In this document: piece after piece, positions 31,462-62,957 of the stretch
Layout of the letters: every line of letters starts with the position of its first letter
Numbering within the stretch: the first letter of the stretch is position 1
Source: Eledone cirrhosa
Lineage: Eukaryota
Direction of reading: 5' to 3'
DNA: 64,000 nt
NCBI GenBank assembly: GCA_964016885.1
Contig: OZ024740.1
Span: 385,950,001 to 386,014,000 of the forward strand
Made by a program: the position numbers and the translations under genes
The notes under the pieces: generated by a model
What the model was told of the DNA's origin: nothing
The model's database searches: none
The model's input: only the letters and a program-made list of their open reading frames with translations

Positions 31462-31513
<52 letters not shown>

Positions 31514-31597: not shown

Positions 31598-31653
<56 letters not shown>

Positions 31654-31814
31654 TATATACTTATATATATATATATATACACACATATATATATATACTT
31701 ATATACACATATATATACACATATATATATACTTATATACACATATACATACACATATATATATACTTATATACACATATATATACACACACATATATAT
31801 ATATATATATACAC

Positions 31815-31899
<85 letters not shown>

Positions 31900-31918
31900 T
31901 ATACACATATATATATAC

Positions 31919-31981
<63 letters not shown>
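30858..31981. repeat. ~1.1-kb interrupted (TA)n microsatellite
   Basis: Direct reading. Confidence 0.97.
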
Positions 31982-31982
<1 letters not shown>

Positions 31983-34900
31983 CCTTATATTTATTTTTAA
32001 GTTTGACCAATTTATTTTATTTTAATTTTATGGAACTTGCGGCTTTCTACTAAATATGCATACTCACAGAACATGCTTCAATTCATTCTCACAGGCAGTT
32101 AGGCCATAAGGCATTTCTTTGCTTGCCTGGCTCACATTTCTGTAATGATATCTTTTAGATATTTTGCATGCATTTTGAAATTATTAGACAAAAATAACTT
32201 TTTTTTTTAATCGCTCATTTTCAACCCATTTTTTAATTATCTAGTTAGATTTAGTTGTCTCTCTGTCCCTCTGCCACTCTCTCTAAATTTATCTATGTAT
32301 CAATTTCTTTACTTTTCTCAGTCTGTCTCTTCTCCGGCCACCCCTCTCTCTCTCATGAAAATAAATAATTACTGAAGCTGTGGGCTTGGGGATCACTAAT
32401 AGTGTATGTTTCGTATTTTAATGCATTTTGACTACCCACCCCACCCCTTGCAATACTACTATTTTCCGTTTTTGTTTCTTTTTTTTTCTCATTTTTTTTT
32501 GTTTACTTATTTGTTAAATTTTCATATTCAGTTTGATTGTGCATTGCCATTCATATCTAAAACTTGACTGAGACAGAAATTGATAGATCATCGAGCTAAA
32601 TGTCTTGCCATATTAGTCACATCTATTTACATTCTGACTTTAAATCATGGCTGAATCTGCCTTTCATCTGGGATTGATAAAATAAGTACCAGTCAGTATT
32701 GGAATTGATTATACTGAAACCTAAAGCCTTCTGTCTCAGTTAAAATTTGTTTTTACAACAGAGCAGCAGTCTTGTTTTGTTTTTTTATATAGTTTATCTT
32801 CAAACTACCATTGTTATTTCTTAATATTTCATGTAAAGTTTATTTCTTATGTTTTTCATTAATTTTTCCTTGTTTTATTTTGACAGTTTTTGTGTGTATG
32901 CATGTTTTGTTTTATTTTTCTAAATTCTATTAATTATTAAGTTCTTTTGTTATGTTTGAATAAGTATAATTTCTATTTTTCAATTTATTTTTTTTACAAT
33001 ATACATGGCAAAGGTATCATAGGCAAGTGTCTCTTGGCTTTATTCAGACCTTGTGGATGAATTTTATCTGTTCCTGCATCTAAAAGAATGCATATGCTTA
33101 ATGGGTCTACACTTAAAATCATTGGTCATTAGACCTATGTAGTATCTTACAGGACAGGGGTTTTAAAGTTGCAAGTTGGTGCAATGGTGGTCTGTAAAGG
33201 TATGCTATTTTCTGTTGTAGTTTGGAAGCAATGTTATCTATACAGGAGTAGCTCACATTATTGAAGTTAGAGTTTATCATCATTACATACAATGTATGAA
33301 ACAAAAAAATTGGGCTTCATACATTGTTTGTCTGTCTGAATGTCTGTCTGACATCTGAAAACTGTTGTTCATATACATACATACACACACATACATACAT
33401 GTATGCCTATATACATACATACATTTATGTAAATATATAATTGTATGTGTGAGTCAATAAATATACTTGTATTACATGCCTTGTGTCACCCCATCAATAA
33501 AAGCTTTGTGCTATTTTTATAGTTACAAACATTTTAACATATACATGTATGTGTGTGAGTGTGTGTATCTGTCTACTCTAACAACTGGTACTGTTTGTTT
33601 ATGCTCATTAATTTCACATCTTGACAAATATATATCAATAAAATATATACCAGACTTGTAAAAAATATTTGTACTATATGATGGACTAAACCCTTGATTA
33701 TAATGCTCCAGCATGATGCAGTTGAATAATTGAAACCAATAAAAGATTAAATGTTTATATATGTATGTGTGTGTACGTGCTTATGTGTGTTTGTATATTT
33801 GAAATAGAATGTAAGGTATATCTTCCTAGTTTTAGCCATTGCTGTGATGTATAATCAAATATATCAGAACAAATATTAACAAATGTTCATCTTTCTGTAG
33901 TCAGATAAATATTGTTATCGTAATCAAACCAACTGACTTAATGAGATCATAAATGTGGAATAACCTTAAGTAGCTATAAGCTATTACTTTCCATATGCAA
34001 ATGAAGTGGCTGTGTGGTCTCTGGTGAAATCTCAATAAACAAAAACAAGTCAAGTCAAGCTCCCACCTCCCTTTTTTTGTCCATGAAAATATAGAAGAAT
34101 ACATTTCTTCTCTTGCATTTGATGACACAGCCCAACAATAGGTGAAACTAGTAAAATATATCCTAGCTCACATCTCAGATTATTCAACATACACTGTTCA
34201 AAGAATCATATATTAATTATTAAAAAAAGAAAAGAAAAAAAGATTGAAAACACGTTTTTCAGTGGCACCGTGTACCTAGTGAGTTGATATCCTGATACTG
34301 TTGCCATTATCTTTCAGGCTCATCAAAATAAATACAATTTAATCTCAATTGCCCACTCCCCTTTGCCTTTCATCCTTATGGTCGATAAAATAAAGTACAA
34401 GTAATGCACTGGGATAATTGCTGGCTTTATGCCAAAAGTAGAAACAATTATTTTTGTTCTTGTCCCAATTTCCTGTATAAAATATTTCATTTTGCAAATA
34501 TCCTTCGCAAAACCTTAATGCCATAATTAATTGTTTCGTATAAGAATTAATATAACTTTGATCAAGAATTTTTTTTTTTTTTATTCACTTCAATGAATTA
34601 TGTGTTCATTGTGTTCCTTGCTAGCCATGTCATCAGCCAGAGATGGAGTGCAAGTGACCTTGTGACAGACCACACAGGCAAAACAAACATATACAGTATA
34701 TATAGCATTTAACAAAACAATAGCATAACCAGTCTATAAACCAGTGTTTTCTAAGGAGGTTAATAGTATTAGTATGGACATGTATTTTGCCAGTATATTA
34801 GTCCTTTTTTCTTCTTTTCTTCATTGCCTGGTGATAGATAGCAATACATAGAGACAGAAAGAGTAGTACATAAATAGATACAACTCAATCTGTATGTGAG

Positions 34901-37009
34901 TGTGTTGTAGAAGCTAAGATTTTATTCTACTGTCATTTCTAGCAAGAGAGGTTTCCACAACAAAGTTCTTTGCACCATGTACGACAGACAGACAGATAGA
35001 TAAAGGGTCAACATGCTGTAAATACTATGACATTATAGTTCTCTTTCTGTAACTCTCTCACTATATCTCTCTCTTGTTGGCTTCAATTTACAATGAATGT
35101 TCCTATTTATTTATATAGTAAATACGTGCGTTATTGACTGTGTAATACAATTAATGTGGTGTCTGAACACAATGGAACCAAACTCTCATTGTTACTGTGT
35201 CTGTCTCTCCCTCTCTCACCATCTCTCACTATTATGAGCAAGTGGGGGCCCATGCGCTGGCTACCTCACGGCCCCAGCAGATTGAATAGAGAAGGCGTTT
35301 CCCCAGAGGATGGTGAGGGAGACATGCTGGAAGAACTATTCCAGCTCACAAGGCTCGCACCTGCAGGTAGCCAACACTGTGTTGATGGGGATGCTATGGC
35401 CAAGAGCAGGAGAAGTCTCAACCTGGGATTGTCATTGCTTTTGTCAGCAAGGGTTTTAATATCTTGTGATAAAGATGGTTGTCAGGATGTGTTGTCTTTG
35501 TTGTTTAGTGATGATTGGCCAGACTTATGAGCAAAAGTTTTCTAGCTATGACCATACCGACTTGTTTTCAGTAATAGAATATCTAAGACTACATTATTTA
35601 ATATAACCTGTTTTAAATATAACCAGATGTAACTTCAGAGATAATAAGTAGGGTAAAATACATAGATACTCTCTCATTATCAAGAAATATTCATATCTAT
35701 CAGTTGGCATGTTGATATTTTGAGGTGGGTGGGAAGGCTTTTTTTTTACTTTTATGTCTGGAAATTATACCAAAGAACTGTTGCTTCTACATTCCCAGGG
35801 GTTGAATCTGGATTATGGTTAAACTATGTTTTTTTTCTTGTATGAAATCTTAAATTAGTGTAAGTTATTTAAGTAGATATGTTATGTTAGCTAAACCTGT
35901 GTAATAGGACCAACATGATATCCAGTGACTAAATGGTTGATTTTTTTTTTCTTCAGACTGAGTATAGAACTGTCACTTAGAGTCTGTACCCACTTTTAAT
36001 ATATTTTAAGTGGCTCCACAATGTGAAGGCATTCAACCTATTCATTAGGGCGTTGGTCTTATGATCTTAATGTCAGTGGGTCAATTTCTGAACTGAATAA
36101 CACATTGTGTTCTGGAGAAAAACACTTCATTCACATTGCTCCAGTCAAAACTCGGCTGAAAGTGAATACTAGCAGCAGCAGCTGGAGTGTGTGTGTGTGG
36201 GGGGGGGGGGGGGGGGGGTGAACCTGTCTGCTGGTTGGGAGACGTGTACTCTCAGTTACTTAACACCAATGAAACCCAAATAAACTCTGGCTTGATGAAC
36301 CTCTATACTTGGGATAGACTTTAATCTTTTTTTTAACAATGTGGATGTCACCATTGGTTGGAGTATCAAAGAAAGATTACTACATATATTTGTTCGTGAA
36401 CCTAGGCAGAACAAATGCAGCTATCCAAAAGAGATAATATCCAATAAACACTGTTGATAAAATATTTGGAAATTTTACTGTATCATGCTTCTTTTCAAAA
36501 TGAGATATTACTATAGGATGTCACCATGTAAAATTAGATCTATCATTATATCATAAAGTAAGCATCTGCTTCTGTTGTTGAATTATATCGATATAAACAT
36601 TTGGTTCTTCGGATCTCTTCAGCATTTGAAGAAAATCGGGAAATCATTAAGCATCTTTTAAATTCTGAATCTAGCTTTTAGTCTATAATATTTTAGTCAA
36701 TGGTAAATAAAAAAAAAAAAAAGCAAAAAACATAACACTAAATTAGTACTTAACAATATTGTGTAACATTAAATTACATATGTATTTATGATCATCTCCA
36801 TTGCTTTTAAGTCTACTTATCCATGCTGGCATGGAATATTTTCCAAGGGATGTTTTATGACAATGTTTTACAGCCAGATGTCAACCCTTTTAGTCAGCTC
36901 TTACAACATGCAGATATACAGTGTATCCATTCAAAAAACTGGGATGTGAGGCAGAATATGTTGACTTCATTGTTTGATAACAGTTAAACTGGCAGAGAAT
37001 AATATTAGT

Positions 37010-38850
37010 GATGTAACTCACTTTGAATGTCCTGCAACAATACAGAGTTAAGATGTTTTTGAGGGAGCCCCATCGCGGTGGGTAACGTCTTACGACGACT
37101 TTCAGCCAAGATTGCTTGCAAGTAAGTCAAAGATGACCTGAGCGAGGTTCTAAGCCCTGTCCAGCTCGGAGTGGGAATCAAGGGCAGTTGTGAGGCCACA
37201 GTTCATGTGGGTAGACACTTCATAGAGCACATGCCTCCCTTGACACCCTACCTCCTCGTAAAGCTGGACATGACCAATGCTTTCAACAGCATTAGACAGG
37301 ATCACATCCTAGAGACATGTCTCAGACATCTACCCCGTTGTTCACCTTTCATACGGAAGACCCAGCTCACTCATGGCCGCCAACAACAGGCTTACTTTCA
37401 CCACAGATGTCCAGCAGGGGGACCACTCAGCTCACTCCAATTCGTACTGGCAGTCGACGAAGAAGCCCAGTCGGTCCAGTCACCCCTCAACGTCTGGTGC
37501 CTCAATGACATGACCCAGAGTGTCCCGGCTGAGAAGGTAGTTGAAGACCTTCGACATATCCTCCCAGCTCTAAAGCTCCTTGGACTTGAGATCAACCCAA
37601 CCAAGTCTGAGGTGACCAACATCAACTACGGAGAGGCCGAATTCCGCAACTCTATACTCTGCTTCCATCCCATCCTGGCCAGAGCTCAGCTGGCACCCAA
37701 GGACGCCGCATGCATTCTCGGCTCCCCCATTCTCCTGAAAGCCATAAGAGAATGCCTGGAGACCAAGCACACGGATTTGTCCCAATTAGCAGAGAGGTTG
37801 CGACTCATTGACGCTCATCTTGCGCTCTTTCTGTCTCCCTCCCCAAACTTACATTCACGCTGCATGGTGCACCTTGATGAAACCATTCAATGCTATGTGG
37901 GACTCATCTGCAATGTCAGTTTCAACAGTGCAAGCTGGCAACAGGCGACACTCCCAGTGAGGTTTGGTGTGCTCGGCCTCTGATCAGCTTTGGATGTAGC
38001 TTTACCTGCCTACCTCTCCTCTATCTCCTCCTGCCGCACTCTCATGATGATGGAATAGGCTCTGGCCTACTGTACAGGCAAAGGCCTCTCTATCCCTCAA
38101 TATACTATGGTCCAACGTAACTGGGATGACATCAATTGCAAGACTTCTGTCAGGCGGATCGAGTCTGTCTTGGACGAACACCACCTCACCTGTCTCCGCT
38201 CTGCTTCTCAGCACAACAGTGGTGCATAGCTCAATTTCGTGCCCTCCTCATCAACAGATACCCTTCTTGATGATGAGTGCACCCGCATCGGAGTAGCCCA
38301 ATGCTTTGGCCTCTGGATGTGTGAGCCACATAAATTCCACAGCGAGGCGGTTGTTGAATAGTTCTGCCGTCAGAGTGCTGGCCAGTTCCCCCGATACACC
38401 ACTCTCAAGCCTGGATGCAGCTGGCTTTCCATCTCAACTGGAGCCAGCAGGCCTAGTTGCAGAGATGGCAAGCACCCTGACGGAATCACCCTCTTTATAT
38501 TCAAGGAGATAGATTTCTCATCTGGAATGCCACCAACTTAGTCACTTCGGCCACAAACCCCAGCATCACGGCCCGCTTCACAGAAGAATGTAAAATAAAC
38601 AAATACTGGAGTTTGTCCGGCCGCTTCCTCTTCGCACCAGTCGCCATTGAGACCTCAGGCATACCTGGACCCCGTACTGCCAAGCTCCTCCGCATATTTG
38701 GAGCGTCGGTGGCCCGTCTGAGGAGAGAGCCCCGCGAGGTTGGGTGGCTATTGCAGCGAGTGTCACTGGCCATCATCTGCAGGAATGCTTTTGCCGTCTT
38801 ACTTGCTGGCTGCAGCACTTCTGCCCTCTCGCCCTAAGGCCAACCCAATG
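37010..38850 (+). mobile_element. CRE-like (restriction-like endonuclease) non-LTR retrotransposon, degraded
   Basis: KLDMTNAFNSI, LGLEINPTKSE, QATLPVRFGVLGL; RLE remnants DGKHPDGITL and FAPVAIETSG. Confidence 0.75.
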
Positions 38851-39029
38851 ACCCTCCCCTTCACCCCTCCCCTCTCTTCTGTGACACCTGAGCTCTAGTC
38901 ATCGCCTTCCCGTTCTTTTTCTTCTTTCTTTCTCTCTTTTCTCTCTATATTTCCCTAATCTTTCTTTCTTTTTGTTTCCCTTTTTTTTTATTATTGCCGT
39001 CATTATAGTTGTCATTATTATTATTGTTA

Positions 39030-39255
39030 GGGTGATGGATTGGCAGAATCAGTAGAGGGTTGGATGCCATGCTTCGCAGCATAGAGTTACGGCCCTTTAT
39101 GATCTGAGTTCAAATTCTACCGAGGTTAACTTTACCTTTCATCCTTACGGGGTTGATAAAATAAAGTACCAGTCACGAACTGGGGTCGATTTAATCGACT
39201 TTCCCCACCCTCCAAAAATTGCTGGCCTTGTGCCTTTTCAAGAAACCATTATTAT
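39030..39255 (+). mobile_element. tRNA-derived SINE of a second family
   Basis: TGGCAGAAT A box, GAGTTCAAATT B box, conserved central CCTTTCATCCTTACGGGGTTGATAAAATAAAGTACCAG. Decayed copies at ~32640-32710, 34360-34450 and 58550-58705. Confidence 0.8.
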
Positions 39256-40110
39256 TGTTACCGTAAATAATATCATGTTTATACAGTTTTTATCATAAAT
39301 AAATTTCAGAATATAGAAAGAAAAAACAAAATAAGAATTGACCCCAATACTAAACTGTATTGTACTCAATTTTTTCTCTATATCGCTTTTTCATTTCTTC
39401 CCCCTTTCACTCTCTCCTCCTCCAGAAGAAATTGATGGATTCAGACTTGGAGAGGGGATGGACTCTGCCAGGTTTTAAAAATGCTGAAGACATATATTGC
39501 ATATCACACATTGTTTCAAAACTGAAAGCTTCTGTCTAACTTGATACCAGTCCTGATGGATTGGGTGCCTTAGTGGTACCATATAACTCAAAAGTGAGAT
39601 GTCACATTCTTTTCTGTACATTAAAAACATTTTGAAAAATCTAACAATAATACAGTTCAACTAAAAAGGAGACCTTGCTGTGGTATAGGCAGGTGAACAT
39701 TTTCCATACAGACGCTGGCTGTGTGTTAAAGGAGTTTGATTTGCAACTATGTTGTTCTGGATTCAGTCCCAATGCATGGAACATTGGGCAAGTGTCTTCT
39801 ATTATAACCACAGGTTCACAAATGCCTCATGAATAGAATTTCGTAGATGGAAACTGCAGAAGCTTGTCATATATATGCATATGTGTGTGTGTGTGTGTGT
39901 GTGTTAGTTTGTGACTGTATTTATGTTTGTGTCTTTGTTTATGTTCCATAACTTAATGGTTTGGCAAAAAATAGGATCGATAAAATAAATATCAGACATG
40001 AGAAAATAAGTACTGAAGTCAATATGATCAACTAGATGAAGGGGCAGCACCAGCATGGCCATAGTCTAATGACTGAAACTAGTGAGAGAGGAAAAGAATA
40101 AAAGAATATA

Positions 40111-41523
40111 TCATCATCATCATCATCATCATCAACGTTTAACGTCCGTGTTCCACGCTTGCATGGGTTTGGACGGGGGTAGTCCCACTTGAGGCAAGAG
40201 TGATTGTCTTGCTCGCATAGGACTGTCTGGCAGGTTTTCTACAGTTGGATGCCCTTCCTAACACCAACCACATTTACAGTGTGGGTCTGGGAGGTTTTTA
40301 CCGTGTTGCCTACACGGCCACATTACAGCGTGGACTGTGTGTTTTTTTGTCGTGACACCTACACGATCTCATTTGTTTCGGCCCGGATGGCGCGGCCCCA
40401 ACATAACTTTACATAGGACGGGGTGGTGTGGATGGGGGGGGGGGGGGACGAGGGGGTGTGGATGGGGGGGGGGGGTGTATTTTGTTAGAGATGCCTACTG
40501 GCAAGGCGGGTCTTCTCTGTTACTGAGTACCGCCAAAGGTCTCGGTCCAGTGACATTGTCTTGGAGAGGTGTAAGTGTGTGAGGTCGGAGTTTATCAGCT
40601 CGTCCCAGGTTTTTCTAGGTCTGCCTATTCCGTGGCTACCGTCTATCTTTATTGCCCTGCACTTTGTTATACAGCTATCGACTTTCATGCACATCACGTG
40701 TCCATACCAACGTAGCCTTCTCTCGAGTAAACAACATCTGATCCCTCTTATCTCTAATTTTTTCCTTAGTTCGTTTATGCTTTGCCGTTCACGTATATTA
40801 CTGTTACACATCCAGCGGAGCATGCAAGCTTCGTTCCTCTCTAGTCTGCGTATATCCTCTGCACACAATGCCCAGGTCTCACTGCCATGCAACATTGCTG
40901 TTCGTATGCAGGCATCGTACAACCTGCCTTTCATTTTTAGGGAGAACCCTTTAGCAGCTAATAGTGGTATAAGCTCTCTGAACTTTTTCCAACCAGTTCT
41001 GACTCTAGCTACAGTACTTTTAGAGCACCCTCCCCCACTGCTGATTTTATCGCCCAGGTAACGGAAGCTGTCCACTATTTCTATAGAACCCTCTGCGCAA
41101 TTGAAAGAGCTAGTATTTTGTGGGCACTTGCTGCTACTTATTGCACCAGAACACCGGCCACATGTAAAATCTATGTTCTTAGTTAGCTTACCTGTGATCC
41201 CACTACATCTTTTATGCACCCATACTTTGCATTTAGGACACAAAATGGAGTTTCTACCTACGCCTTTCCTACACACCGAGCACGACCATTTCCCAGAAGG
41301 GACCGCCGCCTTGTTTTCTTTCCTACAAACTAGAACTTTGGTCTTAGCCAGGTTAATTTTAAGTCCTTTTGACTCTAGGCCGTGCTTCCATGTTTGGAAT
41401 TTCTTCTCTAGCTCGGCCATTGATTCCGCTATGAGTGTCAGGTCGTCTGCGTATAGGAGTTCCCATGGGCAGCCTGTCTTGAACTCCTCTGTTATAGCCT
41501 GAAGGGCAATAATAAATAGTAGG
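40111..41523 (-). mobile_element. RTE LINE, 5'-truncated, intact C-terminal ORF
   Basis: ORF 40485-41420; (CAT)n tail. Confidence 0.92.
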
Positions 41524-41590
41524 ATATATATATATATATATTATAAAATAACAGGAGGGTGGACTGGTGTGAATCCTTAAAAGGTTTATT

Positions 41591-41648
41591 ATACTATGAT
41601 CATTTCAATGACCGGGTTCAGTATGAATCCGATGATATCATCAGGTAT
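41591..41648 (-). ncRNA. Type I hammerhead motif, same family as 4870-4927
   Basis: Minus strand: ATAC-CTGATGA-TAT.C.ATCGG.A.TTCA.TAC.TGAA.C.CCGGT.C.ATT-GAAA-TGATCA-TA-GTAT. Confidence 0.7.
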
Positions 41649-41757
41649 TCAAAATATAACAAAGGAATATAACAGATAAAATCCATTGGGCTGAAAATCA
41701 GAGACAAGAGGATGACCAACTATTTAGCAGCTTCTACCTCAGATATATATATATATT

Positions 41758-44730
41758 ACCATGAATGTAAGCACCTTAAAGGGTCGCTCTAACGAGGTTG
41801 TAGAAATGCTTGAACGTAAGGAGGTCGATGTTTGTTGTATTCAAGAGACCAAGTGGAGGGGTGGGTCTGCTAGATTCATCGTGGGTAAAGAACGATGCTA
41901 TAAGCTTTTCTGGGTGGGAAATGACAATGGGCTGGGTGGAGTAGGAATCATGGTAGCAGAAAAGTGGGCAGATAAGATAATAGACGTAAATAGAGTGAAC
42001 GACAGAATAATTAAAATAAGACTTGTCCTCAATAGAACTATGGTGACAGTAATATCTGCGTACGCACCCTTATCCGGACTGCTCGGCACTATAAAAGACA
42101 GATTCTATGAGACACTGATGCTCACTACCTCCCAAATAACCGACAGTGACTATATAATTATTGCAGGCGACCTAAATGGTCACGTTGGACAACATTGTGA
42201 CGGCTATGACGGAATCCATGGAGGCTATGGGTTTGGTACTAGAAATGAGGAAGGCTCCAGAATCCTGGAATTCTGTGACGCAAATAACCTAACTATCTGT
42301 AACACTAACTTCAAAAAACGAGACAATCACCTGATCACCTATAGATCGGGGGAACACACAAGCCAGGTAGATTATATCCTTACCAGGAGACGTGACAGAG
42401 TGTCTGTTGTAAACACTAAATCCCTTCCCCATGAAGAATGCACGTCTCAACATAGACTCATAATCAGCGACCTCATAGTCAGGACGAGACGTATTCGACA
42501 ACAGAAGAGGACTATCCTCAGGAGAAAAATATGGAAATTAAAGGACCCCACAGCCAGTCATAAATTTAAAAGCATATTACTTGATGTTTTTGATAGTAAG
42601 GAAGAGCAATTAGAGTCGTACAATATAGAGGAACAGTGGGAATTCCTGAAAGCTAACCTGCTGAAGGCGGCAGATGAAACCTGTGGCTGGAGCAGGCCTA
42701 TAGGCAGGAGGAGAGTAACTTGGTGGTGGAACAGTAAGGTGGAGAGGTCAATCAAGGCCAAAAAGCAGGCTTGGAAAGCATGGTGGAATGGGGGAAGTAG
42801 AGAAGACTATCAAGTGGCCAGGAGGGAAGCTAGGAGACAAGTGTACTTCGCAAGAAGGGAAGCAGAGGAAAGAAAGTTCAAGCATGTTCTACAACGCGAG
42901 GACCAAAAACGTGAGGTGTTCAGGATTGCTAGGCAATGTGTCAAGGAAAACAGTGATATTGTCGGGGAGAAGTCTGTCCTAAATGATGATGGTGTACTTG
43001 CCATCACTGACGCTGATAAGAAGGTAGCTTGGAAGTGTCACTACGAAAGGCTACTAAATGAGGAGAATAATTGGGAGAAAGACAGCCTCCCCACATCGAC
43101 CCAATAGAGGGACCAGCAGTGCAAGTTGAAGGTAGTATAATAAGTAAGGCGATCAAAGACATTAGAAAACTAGGTGTTGATAAATGGCTTGTGAGAGCTA
43201 TACAAGCCATGTATAAAGAAACAGCCAGCAAGGTTAGAATTAACAACGAATATAGTGAAGAGTTTAGCGTAAAAGTTGGTGTTCATCAGGGCTCCGTCCT
43301 TAGCCCCCTACTATTTATTATTGCCCTTCAGGCTATAACAGAGGAGTTCAAGACCGGCTGCCCATGGGAACTCCTATATGCAGATGATCTAACGCTCATA
43401 GCTGAATCAATGGCTGAACTAGAGAAGAAATTCCAAACATGGAAGCATGGCCTAGAATCAAAAGGCCTTAAAGTTAACTTGTCTAAGACTAAAGTTCTAG
43501 TTTGTAGGAAGGAAAATAGGGCACCGGTCCCATCTGGGAAATGGCCATGCTCAGTGTGTAGGAAAGGAGTAGGTAGAAACTCCATTTTATGTCCCAAATG
43601 CAAAGTATGGGTACATAAAAGATGTGGTGGGATCACAGGTAAACTATTTAAGAATATAGATTTTATATGTGGCCGGTCCTCTGGTGCAATAAGTAGCAGC
43701 AAGTGCCCACAGAATACTAACTCATTCCATTGCACAGATGGTTCTATAGAAATAGTGGACAGCTTCCGTTACCTGGGTGATAAAATCAGCAGTGGGGGAG
43801 GGTGCTCTGAAAGTACAGTAGCTATAGTCAGAACGGGATGGAAAAAGTTCAAAGAGCTTATACCACTATTGGCCGCTAAAGGGTTCTCTCTAAAAATGAA
43901 AGGCAGGCTGTATGATGCCTGCATACGAACAGCAATGTTACATGGCAGTGAGACCTGGGCATTGTGTGCAGAGGATATACGCAGACTGGAGAGAAACGAA
44001 GCTTGCATTCTCCGCTGGATGTGTAATAGTAACATACGTGAACGGCAAAGCATAAACGTACTAAGGGAGAAATTAGAAATAAGAGGGATCAGATGTTGGT
44101 TACTCGAGAGAAGACTACGTTGGTATGGTCACGTGATGCGCATGAAAGACGACAGCTGTATAAAAAAGTGCAGGGCAATAAAAATAGACGGTAGCCACGG
44201 AGTAGGCAGACCCAGAAAAACCTGGGATGACTTGATAAATTCCAACCTCACACACTTACACCTCTCCAAGACAATGTCACTGGGCCGAGAGCTTTGGCGC
44301 TACACAGTAATAGAGAAGACCGGCCTTACCTAAGTACAAAGTGAAACCTACTACAGTCAGTAGACACCTCTAACAAAATACACCCATCCCGGTCCCACTA
44401 GCCCCACCCCATCCACACCACCCCTTCAATGTAAAGTTATGTTGGTGTCACAACACCCAGCTCGAAACAAATGAGGTCGTGTAGGTGTCACAACAAAAAA
44501 ACACACAGTCCATGCTGTAATGTGGCCGTGTAGGTAACACGGTAAAAACCTCCCAGTTCCACACTGTAAATGTGGTTGGTGTTAGGAAGGGCATCCAGCC
44601 ATAGAAAACCCGCCAGACAGTCCTATGCGAGCAAGACAACCACTCTTGCCTCAAGTGGGAAAACCCCCGTCCAAACCCATGCAAGCGTGGAATATGGACG
44701 TTAAACGATGATGATGATGATGATGATGAT
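41758..44730 (+). mobile_element. RTE LINE with APE domain and an internal deletion of the RT N-terminal core
   Basis: ORF 41761-43107 (NVSTLKG, CCIQETKW, AGDLNGHVG). ORF 43071-44333 jumps from SKAIKD to IRKLGVD, then GVHQGSVLSP and YADD. (ATG)n tail. Confidence 0.92.
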
Positions 44731-44749
44731 ATATATCTATCTATCTAAG

Positions 44750-45010
44750 GCGGGTAAAATTCCCGAGATCCATGGACGAGTTCTCTCCAGCGGTCTCTGT
44801 CCCTCATTATCGCTGCCATATCCTGCATCTCCAACAGACCAGTGTCTGTCCTTAGGGCATCAACATATGTTAACCTTGGTCTTCCTCTTCTAGTGTGTCC
44901 ATGTAGGGGCTCCCAAAGGAGCACTGAGTGCAATGTCAACTCTGGATGTCGGTGAGCATGTCCAGCCAACCTCAATCTCCTCTGTGTCACTTTTGAGCTG
45001 ACTTTTGGGA
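44750..45010 (-). mobile_element. 3' end of another RTE-like LINE family
   Basis: RRLRLAGHAHRH...GRPRLTYVD...DRDRWRELV (ORF 44745-44990). Confidence 0.75.
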
Positions 45011-45465
45011 TATATGATATATATATATATATATGTTAAGTTTAGAAATGTTAAAACACTTATTGAATTTACAAAACTAATAAATAACCTGCAATTTTTT
45101 TTTTTTTTTTTTTTTTAAACCTAAAATATTGATTCTTCACCCTAAAATAGCATAAATTAAATATTTTCAAACATGACCGTTTAACTTTCAGAAAATCTCT
45201 TTCTACATATATTCCCTCTCTCTATATATATTATCTCAGCGGCTCTCACTGACCGCTTTCCCTGACAAATTGTAGTATCATACATTTTAAAATCTCTATA
45301 ACTGTTACATTAAGCAACGTTTTTCTTACTCACACATTCTCTATTGAATTTATTACGTTTTCGCATTTTCTCATTATTAGGATATAAATGTTAAACTTTC
45401 TCTTAGGTTAATCACTACCTTGATTAAATCTTAACCATTTAACATCTCAGGGTATGTCATATATC

Positions 45466-45528
45466 ATTATATTTTGTCTGATGAGGACGTACTGTTGTAC
45501 ATCCGAAATATGTATAATAAAATGTAAT
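45466..45528 (+). ncRNA. Well-formed minimal type I hammerhead ribozyme, sense to the Sidekick-like gene
   Basis: ATTATATTTTGT-CTGATGA-GGA.C.GTAC.TGTT.GTAC.A.TCC-GAAA-TATGTA-TA-ATAAAATGTAAT. 12-bp stem I (with G-U), intact core, self-complementary stem III. Confidence 0.8.
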
Positions 45529-45565
45529 TGATAAAAAGAACATCTATTTTATTAATATTTGTATA

Positions 45566-45609
<44 letters not shown>

Positions 45610-45612
<3 letters not shown>

Positions 45613-45704
45613 TGTCCCAAAATGTATACACACTTCGAAAGCATTCTAATAAATATTGCCTGTACAGGTAATCAAAGTGTGTACACATTTTGGGGGTCAC
45701 CCTG
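45610..45704. mobile_element. Tc1/mariner-type MITE (~95 bp)
   Basis: Imperfect TIRs CAG..CCCAAAATGTATACACACTT / AAGTGTGTACACATTTTGGG..CCCTG; TA flanks. Confidence 0.65.
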
Positions 45705-46794
45705 TATATATAAATGGAAAACTATTCACCATCTTCAGTGAACATCTACGTTATTTGTTATATCAATTAGAAACCACTGTGATAAAAAAAAACTATTTGA
45801 TTTCTTTTTCTACTGTCCTCTCCTATCAAATTGCTGGCCTTGTACCTAACTTAGAAACAAATATTTGATGTAAAGACAAAACCTTTGCCAAGAATTCTTT
45901 ATTGAGAACTTAATTTGCTGTTCTATGATTGATAACCAACTACTGTTTATAGAAGCTTTCCATAATCCAACAGTGTGGTACTGCCTAGCTTATTAACCAA
46001 CACCAACAACAGAGTACATGAATGTGGATGCCTATTGTGAGCAATAAAGTAATTTTGTAATTGCAAACACAATACCTAGAGTGATTCAATTATTTTATTT
46101 GTTAAAACATTCAAAGGAAAGATTCAACTACTCAAGCAATAGTAGAAATTGTGAGTGGTGTGCATGAAAGTGTGTCATGTATGTATGTGCTTGTGCATGC
46201 ATGCACATACATGTATACACAACATGCACACACATATATATACATAATATACTTTTGTACAAGATATTGGCCAACACGTCATTCAATAAATAATGATGCA
46301 ATTAGATTCAAGCACTCAAAAACAAATGCAATTTAGTAGTCCATGATAAAGTATGAGTACAATAACAATAATTGTGAAGGCCAGATGTAGAAATTCATAA
46401 CTCGCTTTCTTCAGAATCTGCTGTAATACATATTTCTGTGGCATTCATCATTACGCAATGCAGCCATCATGTTACCACCAACACGACTTCATCAGACAGC
46501 ATCATAAAGAGGCAGGCTGTGGAAGAAGAAACATGATATCTGTCCCCTTATCTATAACCCCTATTGAAATAGAAATGTTACATAACCTTTTGCTTAAGAT
46601 GTTATCTGATTAAGTTATGTTGGTGGTTGCCTGATGACTGCATTGTGTAATCATCAATGCCACGGAAATATGTATTATGGAAGATTCTAAATAAAATGAG
46701 TTATGAATGTCTACATCTGGCTATAGCAATTATTATTGTGTATATAAAAAATATATATGTATGTATTATTTAACATCTGCTATCCCTGCAAGAA

Positions 46795-49700
46795 ATCATC
46801 ATCACCGTTTTACATCCGTTCTTTCACACTAGCATGGGTTAGACGGGTTGTCCTGTTGTGGGCAGTGTCTGGTCGGCTGACCATGCCTTGCTCATACAGG
46901 AACTGATTTGGCTTCATTTCTACAGTTGGATGCCCTTCCTAACACCAACACTGAGTGCTGGGTGCTTTTTCGTGGCGCCTACACGTCCACTTTACAGTGT
47001 GGGCTGGGTGCTTTTTTGCTGTGGCACCTCCACGACCACCTTGTGGTGGGGGGTGTGAGGGCATATTGTCTATATGCTTCAGCTTGTAGCCATGGGAGGT
47101 TGTGTACTCTGTATTACTGCGTGACGCCAGAAGTCACGGTCGTGTGTCATTGCCTTTGAGAGGTGTAATTGGGTAAGGTCGGCTTTTATCACCTCATCCC
47201 AGGTCATCTTGGGTCTCCCCACTCCGCGGTTTCCATTGACTTCTAGTGCTCTGCACCTTTTTATGCAGCTGTCATCATTCATACGCATCACATGTCCATA
47301 CCAGCGCAACCGCCTCTCCTGCACACAGCATTTGATTCCTCTTATGCTCAGTCTCTCTCTCAATTCATTTATGCTTTGCCGTTCACGTATATTACTGTTA
47401 CACATCCATCGGAGCATGCAGGCTTCGTTTCTCTCTAATCTATGTAAGTCTTCCACCTTCAGCACCCAGGTCTCACTACCATGCAACATTGCTGTTCGGA
47501 TACACGCATCATACAGTCTGCCTTTCATTCTGAGGGAGAAGCCTTTTGCAGCTAGCAGTGGTAGTAGTTCCCTAAACTTCTTCCATCCCGTTCTTACCCT
47601 AGTTATTGTACTTTCTGAACACCCACCTCCGTTGCTAATTCGGTCACTTAGGTAGCAGAAGCTGTCTACTGTTTCTACAGAGCCCTCCCAGAGATTGGTG
47701 GTACTTGTTTCCTGTGGCTGTTTGCTGCTTGCTGTCTCAGCACAGCTGCTGCATGTGAAGCCTACATTCTTAATTAAGGTTCCTGAGATCCCGCTACATC
47801 TCTTGTGTACCCATTGTTTGCATTTGGGGCAGAGAATGGAGTTCCTACCTACACCTTTCCTACATACTGAGCAAGGCCATTTCCCTGAGGGGATCTGGGT
47901 TCTGTTTTCTCGTCTACTTACAAGGACCTTAGTCTTTGTCATGTTGACTTTGAGACCCTTTCTTTCTAGTCCCTGCTTCCAAGTTTGGAATTTCTTCTCT
48001 AGTTCTACCATAGATTCAGCTATGAGTGCGAGGTCATCAGCATACAGGAGTTCCCATGGGCATCCGGTCTTAAACTCCTCCGTTATTGCCTGCAGGACTA
48101 TGATGAACAGGAGGGGGCTAAGAACAGAGCCCTGGTGGACCCCAACCTGTACGCTAAATTCCTCGCTATACTCATTGCTAATCCTAACTTTGCTGACTGC
48201 TCCCCTATACATGGCTTGTACCGCTTTCACAAGCCATTCATCTACTCCTAGTTTTCTAAGAGCCCACCAGATTACAGCACGTGGAACTCTGTCAAAGGCT
48301 TTCTCAAGGTCGACAAATGCCAAGTAGAGTGGCTTACTTTTAGCTAGGTATTTTTCCTGTAATTGCCTCACAAGGAAGAGGGCATCAGTGGTGCCTCTTC
48401 CTGGTACAAACCCAAATTGCATCTCGTCTATTTTTACCCGGTCCCTAATCAACTGTGCTATAACTCTTTCTGTTACTTTCATGACCTGGTCCATCAACTT
48501 TATACCTCTATAGTTTCCTCTATCTAGTGCATCGCCTTTACCTTTGTAGCAGTTGACAATGATGCTACTGCACCAACCTTTTGGTATGGCACCTTCTCGT
48601 ATTACCTGGTTAACAATACGTGTGGTTATAGTGTGACCTACAGACCCAGATGCCTTCAGCATCTCGGCAGCTATACCCGATGGACCGGTTGCCTTCCCCA
48701 TCTTCATATCTTTGATTGCCTTACTTACTACGCTGCTGCTGACTTGTACTGCTGGTCCCTCTATAGGGTCTACTTGGGGTAGGGTCTCTTCTTCCCATGC
48801 ATTCTCCTCATTTAGTAATCTATCATAATGACTCTTCCATGCATCTTTCTTCTCAGCACTTGTGAGGGCAAGCTCACCTTTATCATTCCGGATACACTTC
48901 TCTCCAATGACATCACAACTATCTCTGACACACTGCCTCGCAATCTTGAATACCTCCTGTTTCTGGTCCTCACGTTGCAAAACATGCTTGAATTTTCTAT
49001 CCTCTGCTTCCCTCCTAGCTAAGTATACTTGTCGCCTAGCTTCTCTCTTGGTCTCTATGTAATGTACCCTGCTCCCCCCGTTCTTCCATTCTTTCCATGC
49101 CTGTTTCTTGGCCTTAACTGCTTCATCTACCTTATTGTTCCACCACCAAGTCACTCTCCTCCTGCTTGAGGTCTTACTCCAGCCACAGACCTCATCCGTC
49201 GCCTCTAGTAAATTATTTTTTTAGGAACTCCCAGTTCTCTTCTACATTAAATGTCTTTATCTGTTCTTCTTTACTGCCGTAGGCGTTGAGTAAAATATCA
49301 TTGAGGGGACTTTCAGCTTCCAGATCTTTCTTCTCCAGGTTGGCCTCTGTTTCCGGGTTCGTCTAGTTCTGACCGTGAGGTCGCTGACAACTAAGCTATG
49401 TTGGGATGTACATTCCTCACTAGGGAAGGCTTTTGTGTTTACGACCGTCCATCTGTCACGTCCTCTGATGAGGATAAAATCTAACTGACTAGAGTGCTCC
49501 CCTGATCTATAGGTGATCAGGTGGTTGTCGGGTTTTTTAAAGTTTGTGTTACATATCGACATGTCATTGGCGTCACAGAATTCTAGAAGTCTGAATCCTT
49601 CCTCATTCCTTGTGCCAACCCCATGGCCTCCATGTACTCTATTGAAGCCGTCGCAGTGTTTACCTACGTGTCCGTTAAAATCTCCTGCGATGATTAGGAA

Positions 49701-50505
49701 GTCATTGTCGTCTGTTAGAGCAGTAGTGTGCATTAAGGACTCGTAAAACTTATCCTTAAGTTCGTCTGGCAGCCCCGATTGGGGTGCGTAAGCTGATATT
49801 ATTGTGGTAATTGTTTTATTCAGGACTAGTCTGAGTTTAATGATTCTTGCATTTACCCTGTACACTGAGATTACTTTATCTACCCACTTGTCAGCTAGTA
49901 GTATACCTACACCACCCATCCCATCGTCATCTCCCACCCAGAAAAATTTGTAGCACCGACTTTTTCCTACGAGGACTCTGGCAGACTCTCCTCTCCATCT
50001 AGTCTCTTGCACACAGCATACATCAATTTCCTTTCGCTCTAGAATTTCTACGATTTCTCCTGCTCTTCCTTTCATTGAGCCTACATTGATGGCACCAACT
50101 CGGAGTTTTGGGCATTTGTCGACACTCGTAGGGAAGGGTCTCTGGGTTAGCGCTTCACGTGGGTGCTTGGTAGCTCGCAGATTCATATTTCATCTATTGA
50201 TTCAGAGTTGCTCAAATTTATTCTCAGCTCGTCCATCCATAACGGTGGGAAAATTGAGGGCTAGAAGAACAGTGGTGGTGGGATAATGGCAGGGTGTGTT
50301 GGGCTGTGACAGGGGGGGAGAGAGTTAGTTAGGTAGTAGTAGTAGTAGCAGCAGCAGCCGTAGAAATGGCATGCTGAGGTTTGATTGGTCGAATAGGCTA
50401 TGGCGGTGTGAGGGGGTGGGAGGGAGAGAAATTGTGAGGTAGGCACTGAGAGTCGCCTTCAAGACCGCATGGTAAATCCGAAATAATACAGCAGATATAA
50501 TACAG

Positions 50506-50508
<3 letters not shown>
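46795..50508 (-). mobile_element. Near full-length RTE LINE (5' UTR, APE, RT, PHD-like finger, tail), frameshifted near 49200-49300
   Basis: ORF 49257-50186 is the APE. ORF 47079-49154 (691 aa) has NYRGIKL, QFGFVPGRGT, FVDLEKAFD, GVHQGSVLSP and YADD. Confidence 0.95.
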
Positions 50509-50546
<38 letters not shown>

Positions 50547-50694
50547 TCTCGGGTCCCAAATAATAGGGGGTGGGGGTGGAATAAATGGGGGTAGGGAATC
50601 GGTAATTTTTCTAGATTGTTTCAATTGAGGGTTGGAAAAAATCTGAAAAATTAACAAGCTGGTGGGGACGATTATTCGAAACTCAAGTGTGTAT

Positions 50695-50935
50695 ATATCA
50701 TCATCATTTTATGTCCACTTTACAGTGTGGGCTGGGTGCTTTTTTGCTGTGGCACCGCCACGACCACTTTGCAGTGGAATGATAGGGACCCCAGGCCTAT
50801 CATATCATTTCAACAGCTGAGTAAACTGGAGCAATGTGAAATAAAGTGTCTTGCTCAAGGAAACAACACATCACCCGGTCTGAGAATTGAACTCACAACC
50901 TTCAATTCTCAGACCGGGTGATGTGTTGTTTCCTT
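50695..50935 (-). mobile_element. SINE copy whose 5' end is replaced by a 35-bp fold-back
   Basis: Same family as 22571; 50857-50891 is the reverse complement of 50901-50935. Confidence 0.8.
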
Positions 50936-51151
50936 ATGATGTGTATATATATATATATTTAGAGTAATGTCCAGCACTCGGTGCGTAGTTTCCAGTAAGT
51001 ATAGACGTGTAGTACTAAGCAGAGTGTAATACTACTAATAAAAAAAGACGATTTGTTTATTGAGTAGTGACGTGTGTTTTGCTATTGATCAGCTCAAGGT
51101 TCAATCTGTATCAGTCTGACCCAACTCTGGAATCAAAAGCTCATCATATAT

Positions 51152-51345
51152 TCATTTTATTAAGGCTACAGTATTATTACTCTGGAGTTTCACCTGCTTC
51201 TCATTGGGTCATCAGACAATTTATTGTTTGATGATCCTATGATGAGAAACAGGCAAACTCCAGAGTAACAAGACTCACTATTTAGCCTTAATAAAATGAT
51301 TATTTAAATGCTACTTCAGTATTGAGTACTCTTTTCTCTGTCATC
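51152..51345. mobile_element. Head-to-head pair of degenerate hammerhead repeats plus tail
   Basis: Minus arm ATTGT-CTGATGA...GAAA-CTCCAGAG-TA-ATAAT. Plus arm TTGT-TTGATGA...CAAA-CTCCAGAG-TA-ACAA. Outer arms TCATTTTATTAAGGCTA / TAGCCTTAATAAAATGA. Confidence 0.6.
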
Positions 51346-51392
51346 TATTACATATGGATATGTATATATATATGTGTGTGTATGTATGTATG

Positions 51393-51438
<46 letters not shown>

Positions 51439-51529
51439 CATGTATATATAGTGGGCTCCGTAAGCCATAGTGAAGGCAACCCATCTAGGAGGACAGTAAC
51501 TCGGATTAAAGACTACTGCTTGGGGTAGA

Positions 51530-53605
51530 CGTGAGCTCTGTAGGCTATAGTGAAGGCAACCAGTCTAGGAGATAATAAAAACTAACACAAGGTGTAGAAG
51601 ACTCTTGAGTCCAGTAAGACAACCTCTCTAGTGCTGATGGCACAAATAATGCACACAGTCCACACTGTAAGGTGGTTGGTGATAGGAAAGGCATCCAGCC
51701 AGAAAAACCCTGCCAAAATATGAACCGTACAACAAACATAACTCCCACAAATTGCATATACAGGGCTAATACTAGTCATGTTAGTGCTGAGCACGGTAGT
51801 GGAGTGGTTATAGTAGCCATGTGCAAGACCTAGGATGAGGTGACTTTGCACCTCTCAAATATCTTTGGTGTTATGTAGTAATACAGAAGACCTGTCATAG
51901 GTTGAAGCATACGTCTAGTATGCACTACATAACCCCTATCCCCCCTCCCCCTTTCATATACTTCCCACACCATAACACTCCACCCACATCCTAATCACCC
52001 CACTCTTCTCCCATGCTTTTACACTCCCTTGCCCCAGTCCATGCTGTAAAGTGGTCATTTTGGTGCCAAAGCAAAAAGCACCCAGCCTACACTGTAAAGT
52101 AATCATTATGGTACCATGATAAGAGGCACCCAGTCCACACCGTAAAATAGTTATGTAGGTGTTACAACAAAAAGCCCCAGCACACATTGTAAGTGATTGG
52201 CATTAGGAAGGGCATCCATCCATAGAAAGCAAGCCAGAAACAGTTCTGTATGAGCAAGTCACAGTCACCTGACCTGACTTGCCTTAAATGGGACAACCCA
52301 TCTAACCCATGCTAGCATGGAAAATAGATTTTAAATGATGATCATGTGAGGTTTAGTTTTTTAACGTCAGTCTTCACAACCTCGTCTCAAGTCTTCCTGG
52401 CCCTACCTCTTCCACAGGTTCCAACCACAAGGATGTCTCTGCAGTTTATTTTATGCAGCTTATTTTATCATTCATATGCATCACATGTCCATCCCAATGC
52501 AGTCATCTCTCTTGCATATCATCATCATCATCTTCATTTAACGTCCATTTTCCACGCTAGCATGGGTTTGACGGGAGTTGTCCCACTTGAGGCAAGGTTG
52601 GTCGGGTGACCATGTCTCGCTCATATAGGACTATCTGGCAGGTTTTCTACGGCTGGATGCCCTTCCTAACACCAACGACATTTACAGTGTGGACTGGGAA
52701 CTTTTTACCGTGTTACCTACACGGCCACATTACAGCATGGACTGTGTATTTTTTGTCGTGGCACCTACACGATCTCGATCTCATTATCTCATTTATTTGG
52801 ACTGAATGTTGTGGTACCAACTTTACAGAGAGAGGGTGGTGTCTATATCCAATTCCTCTTATGCCAATTTTTCTCTTAGTTTGCTTATGCTATGTCAATC
52901 ATGCACACTAACAAATCATATCCACTGGAGAATACTTGATTCATTCGTTCTAGCCACCACAGTCAAGGCCAAATGTTTCACTGCCATATAGCATTGCTGT
53001 TCACACACGCAGGCATCATACATTCTACCTTTCTCTCTGAGAGAAAATGCCTTTGTTGTCAGCAGTGGTAACAGCTCTCTAAACTTCTTCCAGCCTGTTC
53101 TTATCCTAACTATCACACTTTCAGAGCATTCTCCCTAACTGCTAATTTAATCAGCTAGGTAAGAAAAGCTGTCAACAGCTTCTAAGGGGCATCCCTCATA
53201 ACTGAAATTATTCATTTCACATGTGCTCTTAGTACTTACTTCTCCTATGCAACTGCTACATATAAAGTCTATCTTTTCCGTTAGCCTACCTGCAATCCCA
53301 CTACATCTCGTGTACATTCATAAATTTCACTGTGTGCAATTTATAGAATTTTTGTCGACCCCTTTCTGACATATCAAACAAGTTTACTTCCTTGATGATA
53401 TCACCATCCTGTCTTCTTTCCTACTTATTAAGACTTTTTCATCTTTGCTAAGTTTACTTTTAGGCCTTCCATGCTTGAAATTTTGCCTCTAACTCAGCTA
53501 AGGATTCAGCTATGAGGACTTGGTCATCAGTGTATAGGAACTTGCATGGAGTGCCAGTTTTAAACTCCTCAGTGATGGCCTGAAGGACAATGATAAACAG
53601 CTGTA
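51530..53605. mobile_element. Cluster of old RTE 3' ends and a decayed minus-strand RTE (52345-53600) with a nested younger RTE tail
   Basis: Repeated TAGGAAGGGCATCC tails; GWKKFRELLPLL in ORF 52916-53116. Confidence 0.75.
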
Positions 53606-54591
53606 GACTTATTTGATATTTATCTTTTCATTGAAATGTCCAAGTATATTAGTGACAAATAACTTTCTGTTTGATATTTGCTACTCCTTAATTGTTGAGT
53701 TGATGTAGATGGGTTTTTTTTTGGTACTATTTCTAGCATCACTATGACTCTGTCATATTGTCCTGATATACAGATATTCATTCATAGTTGATTTCATTGA
53801 ACAATAGCTGCAAATATGTCGGAAATATGGATGATGTGGATGAAAATTGACTAACAACCATCACTAGTAGTAGTAGTAGTGGTGGTGGTGGTGGTGGTGG
53901 TGGTCAGTTGTAGTGGCAGTAGTAGTAGTAGCAGTGGTGGTGGTGGTGGTCACTGTTGCCACTGCTGTAGCAGCAAGTAAAAAGAATATCACTATAGGTA
54001 GCACTATATTAACAGCTGCAGTAATAACATAGTTATCATCATACTGTTTAAGTCTATTTTCCAAGTGTCATTCTATGTAGCTTTCCAAGTCAGGTGACCA
54101 TGTTTTGCCTATACAGATCTGTTTTGGGCTTTGTTTTCTCCATTTGGATGCCCTTCCTAATGCCAACCACATTACAGTGTGTACTGGGGGAGGGATCTCA
54201 TTATAGAAATAGTTATGAAGATAATGATAATAATATTGATGATGATAATATTAATGATTTAAATTAATTATCAATTTTCTTTATTTCTCATTCGTAAAAT
54301 AAATGTTTTTTAAGATGTGGTGCAAAATGTTTCTTTTTTTCTTAATTGATTTTGTTTTATTTCGTTTTGTTTTTTGCATGATTATTTTTTCTTTTAATTT
54401 TATTTACATTACTTTTCTAATTTGTTTGTTTGTTTTGTGTTTTGTTTGTGCAACCCAAGCTTTGTAATTATATTTTAGTCACTGAATATGGCTAAAAAGA
54501 AGCTGCTCTGCTGACTGGCTGCACATGTTTATACGTAAATTTAGCATGTTTGTTTTGCCTTGATATTGTTGTATTTAACTGCTCTCTTCAG

Positions 54592-54657
54592 ATCCTCTAA
54601 GCATGCAAGCAGCTCGCAAGAAACGAGACAGTGTTAAAAACTCAACAACTATCAGAG
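54592..54657 (+). CDS. Candidate 66-nt phase 1-1 exon of the Sidekick-like gene (DPLSMQAARKKRDSVKNSTTIR)
   Basis: Long U-rich upstream tract, TGCTCTCTTCAG| acceptor, |GTCAGT donor; splices in frame to 59580 (G+GA = Gly). Confidence 0.65.
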
Positions 54658-59579: not shown

Positions 59580-59753
59580 GAAGTTGGACTAATGTATTAT
59601 TGAAAGAATCACCACAGACTGGTGCATTGCTTAATATTCACAGCTTAGATACTGGCAAAGTATACCAATTTCGAGTACTAGCCTACAATTGGCTTGGAAT
59701 TGGGCCACCAAGTAAGCCGTCTAAACCTATGTTGATACAAGATCCAGAAAAAG
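59580..59753 (+). CDS. sdk: Sidekick-like gene: C-terminal half of the last fibronectin type III domain
   Basis: TTCAG| and |GTATGC splice sites; GSWTNVLL...LDTGKVYQFRVLAYNWLGIGPPSKPS fits the FN3 consensus Y-x-F-R-V-x-A-x-N-x-x-G-x-G-x-x-S. Confidence 0.8.
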
Positions 59754-61342: not shown

Positions 61343-61489
61343 GTGCACTTGGAGGAATGCGAGAGTTCAGTGAGAGACCATTCCATACAGAATGGTGGTT
61401 CTTGCTCATTATTGCTCTGAGTGGTTTAATTGTTATAATGGCTGTTGTGCTGTTATTGGTCCTGGTAGGAAGGAAGCGAAAGATGACCC
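61343..61489 (+). CDS. sdk: Sidekick-like gene: transmembrane exon
   Basis: TGTAG| and |GTAAGT. PFHTEWWFLLIIALSGLIVIMAVVLLLVLVGRKRK resembles the Sidekick juxtamembrane/TM signature PFYEEWWFLLVMALSSLI (from recall). Confidence 0.85.
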
Positions 61490-62818: not shown

Positions 62819-62957
62819 GTGAAAACATTCGCCGACGTAACACACCTCCTCTTCCACTGGAACCCCCAGTACTTGATGACGGAGGTTTCTCCACATTTGA
62901 TCGACGGCAGTCGCGTAGAACTATTGGACACCGTACCAATTCTTTGCGCAGCATGAG
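62819..62957 (+). CDS. sdk: Sidekick-like gene: first cytoplasmic exon
   Basis: TATAG| and |GTTAGT; phase compatible (C+GT = Arg). LDDGGFSTFD resembles the Sidekick cytoplasmic LDNGGF motif (from recall). Confidence 0.8.

Follow-up and report, generated by a model that had tools for sequence, protein, structure and literature searches.

Can the splicing of one short exon decide whether an octopus adhesion protein is open to cleavage by a furin-type convertase? The question is raised by a stretch of 64,000 nt from Eledone cirrhosa (hereafter the window; G000:C1:385950001-386014000, i.e. positions 385,950,001-386,014,000 of OZ024740.1, in a 3.0-Gb genome), in which a first-pass annotation had described a frame-preserving 66-nt exon that adds an R-K-K-R motif to the membrane-proximal fibronectin type III (FN3) domain of a Sidekick-like protein, and had suggested that alternative splicing switches this protein between an intact and a cleavable or shed ectodomain. 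In the vertebrate retina it is Sidekick that specifies synaptic partnerships, and in flies it holds tricellular junctions. Homophilic adhesion via Ig1-4 has been shown for mouse Sdk1/2 (excerpt of PMC5045292), fly Sidekick has been located at tricellular vertices (excerpt of PMC6894751), and Sidekick splice variants have been described as being of unknown significance (excerpt of PMC7479261). An exon that adds or removes the sole predicted convertase site would provide a clean natural pair of isoforms for the study of adhesion strength, turnover and the release of a soluble competitor.

Identification of the host gene

When the exon at 59580-59753 was used as a query, one close relative (P0001) was retrieved, the matches of which are named Sidekick. 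Within the window and its flanks (190 kb on the upstream and 10 kb on the downstream side), 29 exons were identified that are colinear with the Octopus bimaculoides protein P0400 (named isoform X1 in RefSeq). At 70-100% identity, they account for 1,757 of the 2,174 residues of P0400, residues before 371 lying outside this region; identities of this order mark the source organism as an octopod. P0400 contains 6 Ig (I-set) and 13 FN3 (fn3) Pfam matches, a single transmembrane (TM) helix is encoded by exon 61343-61489, and the last exon in the source genome (L026) ends with the C-terminal PDZ-binding motif GFSSFV. This combination of 6 Ig domains, 13 FN3 domains, a TM and a GFSSFV end is the hallmark plan of the Sidekick family (excerpt of PMC7479261), and the host gene is an octopus Sidekick orthologue, in line with the Sidekick-like identity first proposed. 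The L1CAM, Dscam, contactin and LAR families were ruled out by the GFSSFV end and the named matches. The features of the locus are listed in Table 1.

Table 1. Features of the Sidekick locus around FN3-13 (positions in the window unless another coordinate system is given; a slash marks a splice site)
Feature	Position	Strand	Remarks
FN3-13 A-B-C exon	L008:4265-4391 = G000:C1:385934265-385934391	+	70.2 kb before the 66-nt exon
3' part of the 70.2-kb intron region after the FN3-13 A-B-C exon	1..54591	+	
Second optional 36-nt phase 1-1 exon	30679..30714	+	reads GDEKGYRKVCDC; cag/.../gtgagc
TGCATG (Rbfox-type hexamer) in a U-rich stretch	54375..54380 (-217)	+	not above chance
3' splice region	54574..54591	+	branch-point-like TTTAAC, TGC at -12, CTCTCTTC tract, AG
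66-nt phase 1-1 cassette exon	54592..54657	+	adds 22 residues, R-K-K-R among them, to FN3-13 (predicted C-C' loop)
R-K-K-R codons (P4-P1), furin-type motif	54615..54626	+	predicted cut before Asp
Constitutive exon, strands C'-E-F-G of FN3-13	59580..59753	+	cag/GAAG...AAAG/gtatgc
Juxtamembrane and transmembrane exon	61343..61489	+	
First cytoplasmic exon	62819..62957	+	

The 70-kb intron is filled with pieces of LINE-type retrotransposons, at 47085-50189 (-), 41728-43104 (+), 17367-18341 (-) and 37126-37980 (+), in which endonuclease, reverse transcriptase and PHD finger domains were identified by Pfam; the copy at 47-50 kb retains long open frames. It also contains a 468-nt tandem repeat (11023-12546; 3.3 copies, 99% identity), which represents either a recent duplication or an assembly artefact.

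Splicing of the 66-nt exon

The acceptor (...tgctctcttcag at 54580-54591) and the donor (GAG/gtcagt) confirm the exon exactly at the coordinates first proposed. Positions 54594-54656 translate to PLSMQAARKKRDSVKNSTTIR, the first residue (D) being made at the junction with the upstream exon, and the exon joins exon 59580-59753 in frame; over 25 residues it agrees at 88% with its orthologue in O. bimaculoides. Transcript evidence was taken from contigs of 4 of the 24 listed runs, which are RNA by guess or unlabelled and carry no tissue labels; such contigs drop rare forms and give no inclusion levels. In the contigs of runs X22, X16 and X3, the end of the upstream exon (L008:4391) is joined directly to the 66-nt exon, of which the initial 30 letters are read, and the contig of the fourth run, X13, breaks off inside the upstream FN3-13 exon. 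In the X22 contig (1,730 nt, depth 8.1, 0 differences), the upstream exon occupies 188-314 and window position 59578 is found at 379, with exactly 66 letters between the upstream exon and the exon at 59580; the X3 contig (1,187 nt) shows the same spacing, both having been paired between their upstream and downstream placements by length and depth. The joint 54657>59580 can be inferred from this spacing. The skip junction was found in none of the four runs, three of which show inclusion and one of which is broken, in contigs that drop rare forms. The X13 contig of the downstream exon begins exactly at 59578, as would be expected from a branch of two upstream forms but equally from low cover or pre-mRNA, and the X16 contig breaks 30 nt into that exon, possibly at an allele; neither was counted. 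The 66-nt exon is a real, spliced exon of octopus Sidekick, with the 5' joint seen directly in three of the four runs.

Uniqueness and conservation of the furin-type motif

Among 27 full-length cephalopod records, R-x-[KR]-R occurs exactly once in the ectodomain of each of the 23 that contain the exon and is absent from the ectodomains of the 4 that do not. The motif is expected 0.003 times per 22-mer at ectodomain composition, and shuffling of the exon residues regained it in 4.9% of 200,000 shuffles, so that a single sequence is weak evidence and the claim of a furin motif is carried by conservation. In an alignment of six cephalopod sequences, 5 of the 20 gap-free columns of the exon are invariant, and these include P4, P2 and P1 (0.009 by chance, the positions having been named after the motif was seen); P3 is free (K or T) and P1' is acidic. 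The constitutive flanks of the same six sequences are invariant at 26 of 42 and 36 of 57 columns (62-63%). The alignment of mollusc Sidekick proteins that had been proposed as a check thus finds the exon kept in Octopus, an argonaut and cuttlefish, with the R-x-K-R site retained selectively in octopods and cuttlefish while the exon sequence drifts. Judged by its sequence, the motif is very likely a convertase site. The NST sequon noted earlier is also borne out, but as an octopod-only feature, since it has been lost in the cuttlefish-type sequences; it lies at P5', where an N-glycan could hinder convertase access in octopods. The source genome encodes six P-domain matches, the two closest to furin having E values of 4e-26 and 3e-21, and among solved structures two P-domain loci strongly matched furin and kexin only; enzymes of the furin type are thus encoded there.

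Isoforms in octopuses and cuttlefish

Isoform counts for Octopus refer to annotation models, 15 of the 20 cluster members being listed. Eight of these 15 include the exon (O. sinensis X1-3, X5 and X6; O. bimaculoides X1 and X2; and O. vulgaris), four skip it (O. sinensis X4, X7 and X8; and O. bimaculoides X3), and three (P0393, P0396 and P0399) stop inside the FN3-13 intron and lack a TM. The last three are predicted secreted forms that end at the FN3-13 loop and may be artefacts of an intron of such length; a search of the FN3-13 intron of the source genome gave no match to the tails of these models. All 17 cuttlefish-type records that span the loop (Sepia pharaonis and relatives) contain the exon with R-T-K-R, as does Argonauta hians. 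Inclusion looks like the common form, with skipping apparently minor. The alternative splicing proposed in the first-pass annotation is supported by skip models in two related octopuses (annotation only); the contigs of the four runs, which drop rare forms, contain no skip junction. With the exon present in every one of the 17 cuttlefish-type records, the case for a regulated switch is only partial, and such a switch may be rare or restricted to octopods.

Other small exons were identified in the same intron. The 36-nt exon (Table 1) is orthologous to an exon of O. sinensis X5/X7 (tblastn, 11 of 13 identical) and was not seen spliced in the four runs examined. A GCATG is located at -18 relative to its acceptor. 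The 36-nt exon encodes a C-D-C motif and would directly precede the furin exon; the membrane chain offers no partner for the two cysteines, which might, speculatively, link ectodomains to each other. A further exon of 45 residues, present in the FN3-13 intron of O. sinensis and O. bimaculoides (P0394, P0395, P0397, P0402 and P0399), has no match in the DNA compared (the window with its flanks of 190 kb and 10 kb). A crude scan for small phase-1 exons, which missed the known 36-nt exon, gave candidates at 15758, 17820 and 23813 that were rejected as lacking homologue support. The last of these (23813-23821, +) is a 9-nt frame-keeping candidate with good splice sites, without homologue or transcript support.

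Predicted structure and fate of a cut FN3-13

The fold was modelled on the cuttlefish orthologue P0422 (AlphaFold2, 48-row alignment), the source protein being spread over several exons. The model contains two FN3 domains with pLDDT values of mostly 85-97, and the insert occupies residues 123-143, flanked by strand C (114-122) on one side and strand C' (147-152) on the other, with pLDDT values of <50 at residues 134-141. Modelling of the loop, which had also been suggested, thus places the furin motif in a predicted exposed, flexible lumenal C-C' loop of FN3-13. A Foldseek search with the fold returned generic FN3 tandems only.

The two sheets of an FN3 sandwich are A-B-E and C'-C-F-G, and a cut in this loop would therefore leave strand C of the outer chain between strands C' and F of the membrane chain. 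FN3-13 of the source protein contains no cysteine in either of its exons. Monobodies based on FNfn10 are unusually stable. A monobody split in the same loop (named CD there) refolds and binds its target, with a Tm of ~45 C versus 78 C (excerpt of PMC11666773), a result that may overstate retention because of that stability. Co-folding of the two predicted FN3-13 fragments scored 0.54 versus 0.02 for the best control, which is weak support; 86% of contacts were common to the runs and the partner pLDDT was at least 67, and in the benchmark only 5 of the 78 solved complexes passed with a score of 0.60 or lower, a range that also holds each of the 4 mismatches that passed. The pass may be explicable by likeness to solved FN3 folds.

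We put at about an even chance the reading that a furin-type nick in the C-C' loop generates a weakened non-covalent heterodimer, turned on or off by splicing of the exon. By way of the 66-nt cassette exon, the last FN3 domain would carry the only R-x-K-R of the ectodomain within its predicted C-C' loop, and cleavage in the secretory pathway would then yield a chain of ~1,880 residues (Ig1-6, FN3-1 to 12 and strands A-B-C) and a membrane chain of ~290 residues (strands C'-E-F-G, the TM and the tail). The halves would stay clasped by strands that interleave across both sheets, with no cysteine linking the chains. With the adhesive Ig1-4 head on one side and the cytoskeleton-linked tail on the other, the nicked domain would form the weakest link of the series, and the ectodomain might be released under load or after a second cut, whereas exon skipping would give a covalently intact tether.

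In the main competing explanation the nicked FN3-13 simply falls apart, and soluble Sidekick from the inclusion isoform competes for Ig1-4 homophilic binding as an ApoER2-like decoy. Such direct shedding would be consistent with halves that lack a disulfide link, with the loss of ~33 C of Tm in the split FN3 domain (PMC11666773, in part), with the hint of a soluble form given by the three octopus RefSeq models that end in the FN3-13 intron without a TM, and with human SDK1, which is shed by a metalloprotease just after FN3-13, at AVSA/QVEA (excerpt of PMC7995609). We nevertheless consider it unlikely: no match to the tails of the truncated models was found in the intron of the source genome, the two halves are interleaved, and inclusion appears so common (17 of 17 cuttlefish-type records and 3 of 3 informative runs) that obligate shedding would leave little adhesive Sidekick. 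Because the cut would split one beta-sandwich into interleaved halves, a heterodimer is likelier than immediate shedding. The exon, its motif and, in annotation, its skipping agree with the earlier idea; cleavage is a prediction, and the position of the predicted cut within a domain favours a nicked heterodimer over direct shedding.

The same loop in other animals

A set of 308 Sidekick proteins was retained from 444 stored proteins by a filter requiring a TM and a C-terminal SS[FY]V (with five named exceptions); this set is redundant and vertebrate-rich. In these records the C-to-C' span typically measures 13 residues. The motif is found in the FN3-13 loop of 33 of the 308, namely 25 cephalopod, 2 Elysia and 6 Trichinella/Trichuris records, and reads R-A-R-R-K-R in Elysia and R-R-R-R or R-L-R-R in Trichinella/Trichuris, with unrelated neighbouring residues. 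The inserts with the furin consensus outside cephalopods are those of P0006 and P0318 (Elysia) and of P0209, P0217, P0423-P0425 and P0428 (Trichinella and Trichuris). The motif is absent from the loop in the other gastropods, bivalves, brachiopod, annelid, nemertean, arthropods and deuterostomes of the 308 set, in which optional exons may have escaped the databases. Insects have paired isoforms with and without an insert of 7-8 residues at the FN3-13 loop junction, e.g. P0380 versus P0381 of Drosophila ananassae (8 residues) and P0140 versus P0026 of bees (7 residues); the oyster proteins P0429 and P0290 differ by 2 residues at this junction, and hemichordates have an insert of 6 residues. None of these carries a furin motif. 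The optional inserts of insects and oyster mark the FN3-13 junction as a hotspot for small optional exons. An insert like that of the octopus had been said not to be known from vertebrate or fly Sidekick. This holds for the motif, as no vertebrate or arthropod record of the 308 set has R-x-[KR]-R there, but flies do have an optional small exon (the fly data being both forms of Drosophila ananassae; D. melanogaster lies outside the set).

That the motif has appeared repeatedly in one loop, in lineages as distant as these three, suggests a selected property. One tentative extension of the nicked-heterodimer reading, an extension that on balance we doubt, is that the C-C' loop has long been a hotspot of splicing and gained a furin site on at least three occasions (in coleoids, sacoglossan slugs and clade-I nematodes), with the nick serving as a mechanical fuse and octopus splicing setting the share of Sidekick tethers that can break under tension. 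It is improbable, in our view, that the motif remains uncut in vivo and that the insert serves, as a basic and flexible loop, to bind glycans, lipids or a partner or to act as a membrane spacer. Tolerance of furin-less inserts in the loops of insects, oyster and hemichordates would fit such a role, as would the reported association of Sidekick FN3 domains with membranes (excerpt of PMC7479261). However, what has been conserved in cephalopods is the exact furin pattern, whereas in a charge patch K could stand in for R, and the inserts of Elysia and clade-I nematodes likewise end on R-x-[KR]-R.

Splicing regulation

The TGCATG and the TGC that had been pointed out in the U-rich upstream intron are present as described but are not above chance. 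The 250 nt upstream of the exon are 52% T and include a GCATG at -48. TGCATG is not enriched (27 on the + strand of the window, or 0.1 expected per 250 nt), nor is TGC (3.4 expected per 250 nt), and constitutive exon 62819 of Sidekick also has a TGCATG, at -240. Neural microexons of the eMIC type measure 27 nt or less, a limit above which the exon lies with its length of 66 nt. Targets of the eMIC domain are characterized by a UGC between the branch point and the AG, a UCUC tract and a long AG-free zone (excerpts of bioRxiv 2021.02.24.432780 and 2024.09.17.613571). A TGC at -12 and a CTCTC are present before the 66-nt exon, but each element is common, and the AG-free zone there is 47 nt versus 34-87 nt at three constitutive exons of Sidekick. 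A single SRRM_C (eMIC) match (29.3 bits, cut-off 27), corresponding to an exon of a microexon regulator in the source genome, was identified at G000:C22:28167743-28167880 (L031). Neural control of the 66-nt exon is a candidate lead, not a result.

We regard it as very unlikely that cleavage is a near-constitutive step in the maturation of coleoid Sidekick and that the skip models are minor splicing noise over a 70-kb intron, with no regulated switch, since the absence of the skip form from the 17 cuttlefish-type records and the examined runs, the chance-level intronic motifs and the short skip loop (11 residues, Y to W, versus the usual 13) are countered by skip models of both O. bimaculoides (X3) and O. 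sinensis (X4, X7 and X8), an exon length that keeps the frame, oyster isoforms that also have an 11-residue loop and, weakly (chance ~0.02-0.03), the first 30 exon letters, which, as a regulated exon would lead one to expect, are identical across runs although the upstream exon differs at 16 of 127 sites.

Comparison with known systems

The exon is already contained in public gene models, and we found no report of a furin site in Sidekick, which is apparently new: none is described for any Sidekick in open-access full text (subscription papers and the supplements of microexon studies being outside this scope), and the words furin and shed are absent from the 2020 Sidekick review (PMC7479261). 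In the excerpts consulted, Sidekick is named only in a reference of PMC9815951, and PMC10815196 contains nothing relevant. Vertebrate and insect Sidekick share the plan of 6 Ig and 13 FN3 domains, TM and GFSSFV with that of the octopus, and insects also share annotated isoforms with and without a small insert (7-8 residues) at the same junction, but vertebrate and arthropod proteins have no R-x-[KR]-R in the loop among the 308 records.

The general device has precedents that make it less surprising: other receptors are known to have a splice-controlled furin site or to be cut by furin within an FN3 CC' loop. PTPRK is a type IIB receptor phosphatase, the subunits of which stay non-covalently joined after a furin cut. 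Like Sidekick, it is a homophilic adhesion receptor; its membrane-near furin cut yields outer and membrane subunits and is followed by ADAM10 shedding and then by a gamma-secretase cut (excerpt of PMC12067748). It differs in having phosphatase domains, and splice control is not reported in that excerpt. In ApoER2/LRP8, exon 6B (7B in mouse) is similarly a short cassette exon that adds a furin consensus to the ectodomain of a neuronal receptor, and furin-dependent cleavage occurs in cells (excerpt of PMC7410921). The ApoER2 site lies between modules, frees a soluble decoy and is included at a low level, whereas in Sidekick, a homophilic adhesion protein, the site is internal to a single FN3 domain and its inclusion seems to be common. 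Furin cuts the insulin receptor in the CC' loop of FnIII-2, where the site is part of a disordered insert to which the alternative exon 11 also belongs (excerpt of PMC10573852). The position of the site and the presence of an alternative exon there are thus alike, but the insulin receptor is a kinase receptor with a constitutive site and disulfide-linked chains, whereas in Sidekick the exon itself carries the predicted site and the halves of FN3-13 would be held without a disulfide.
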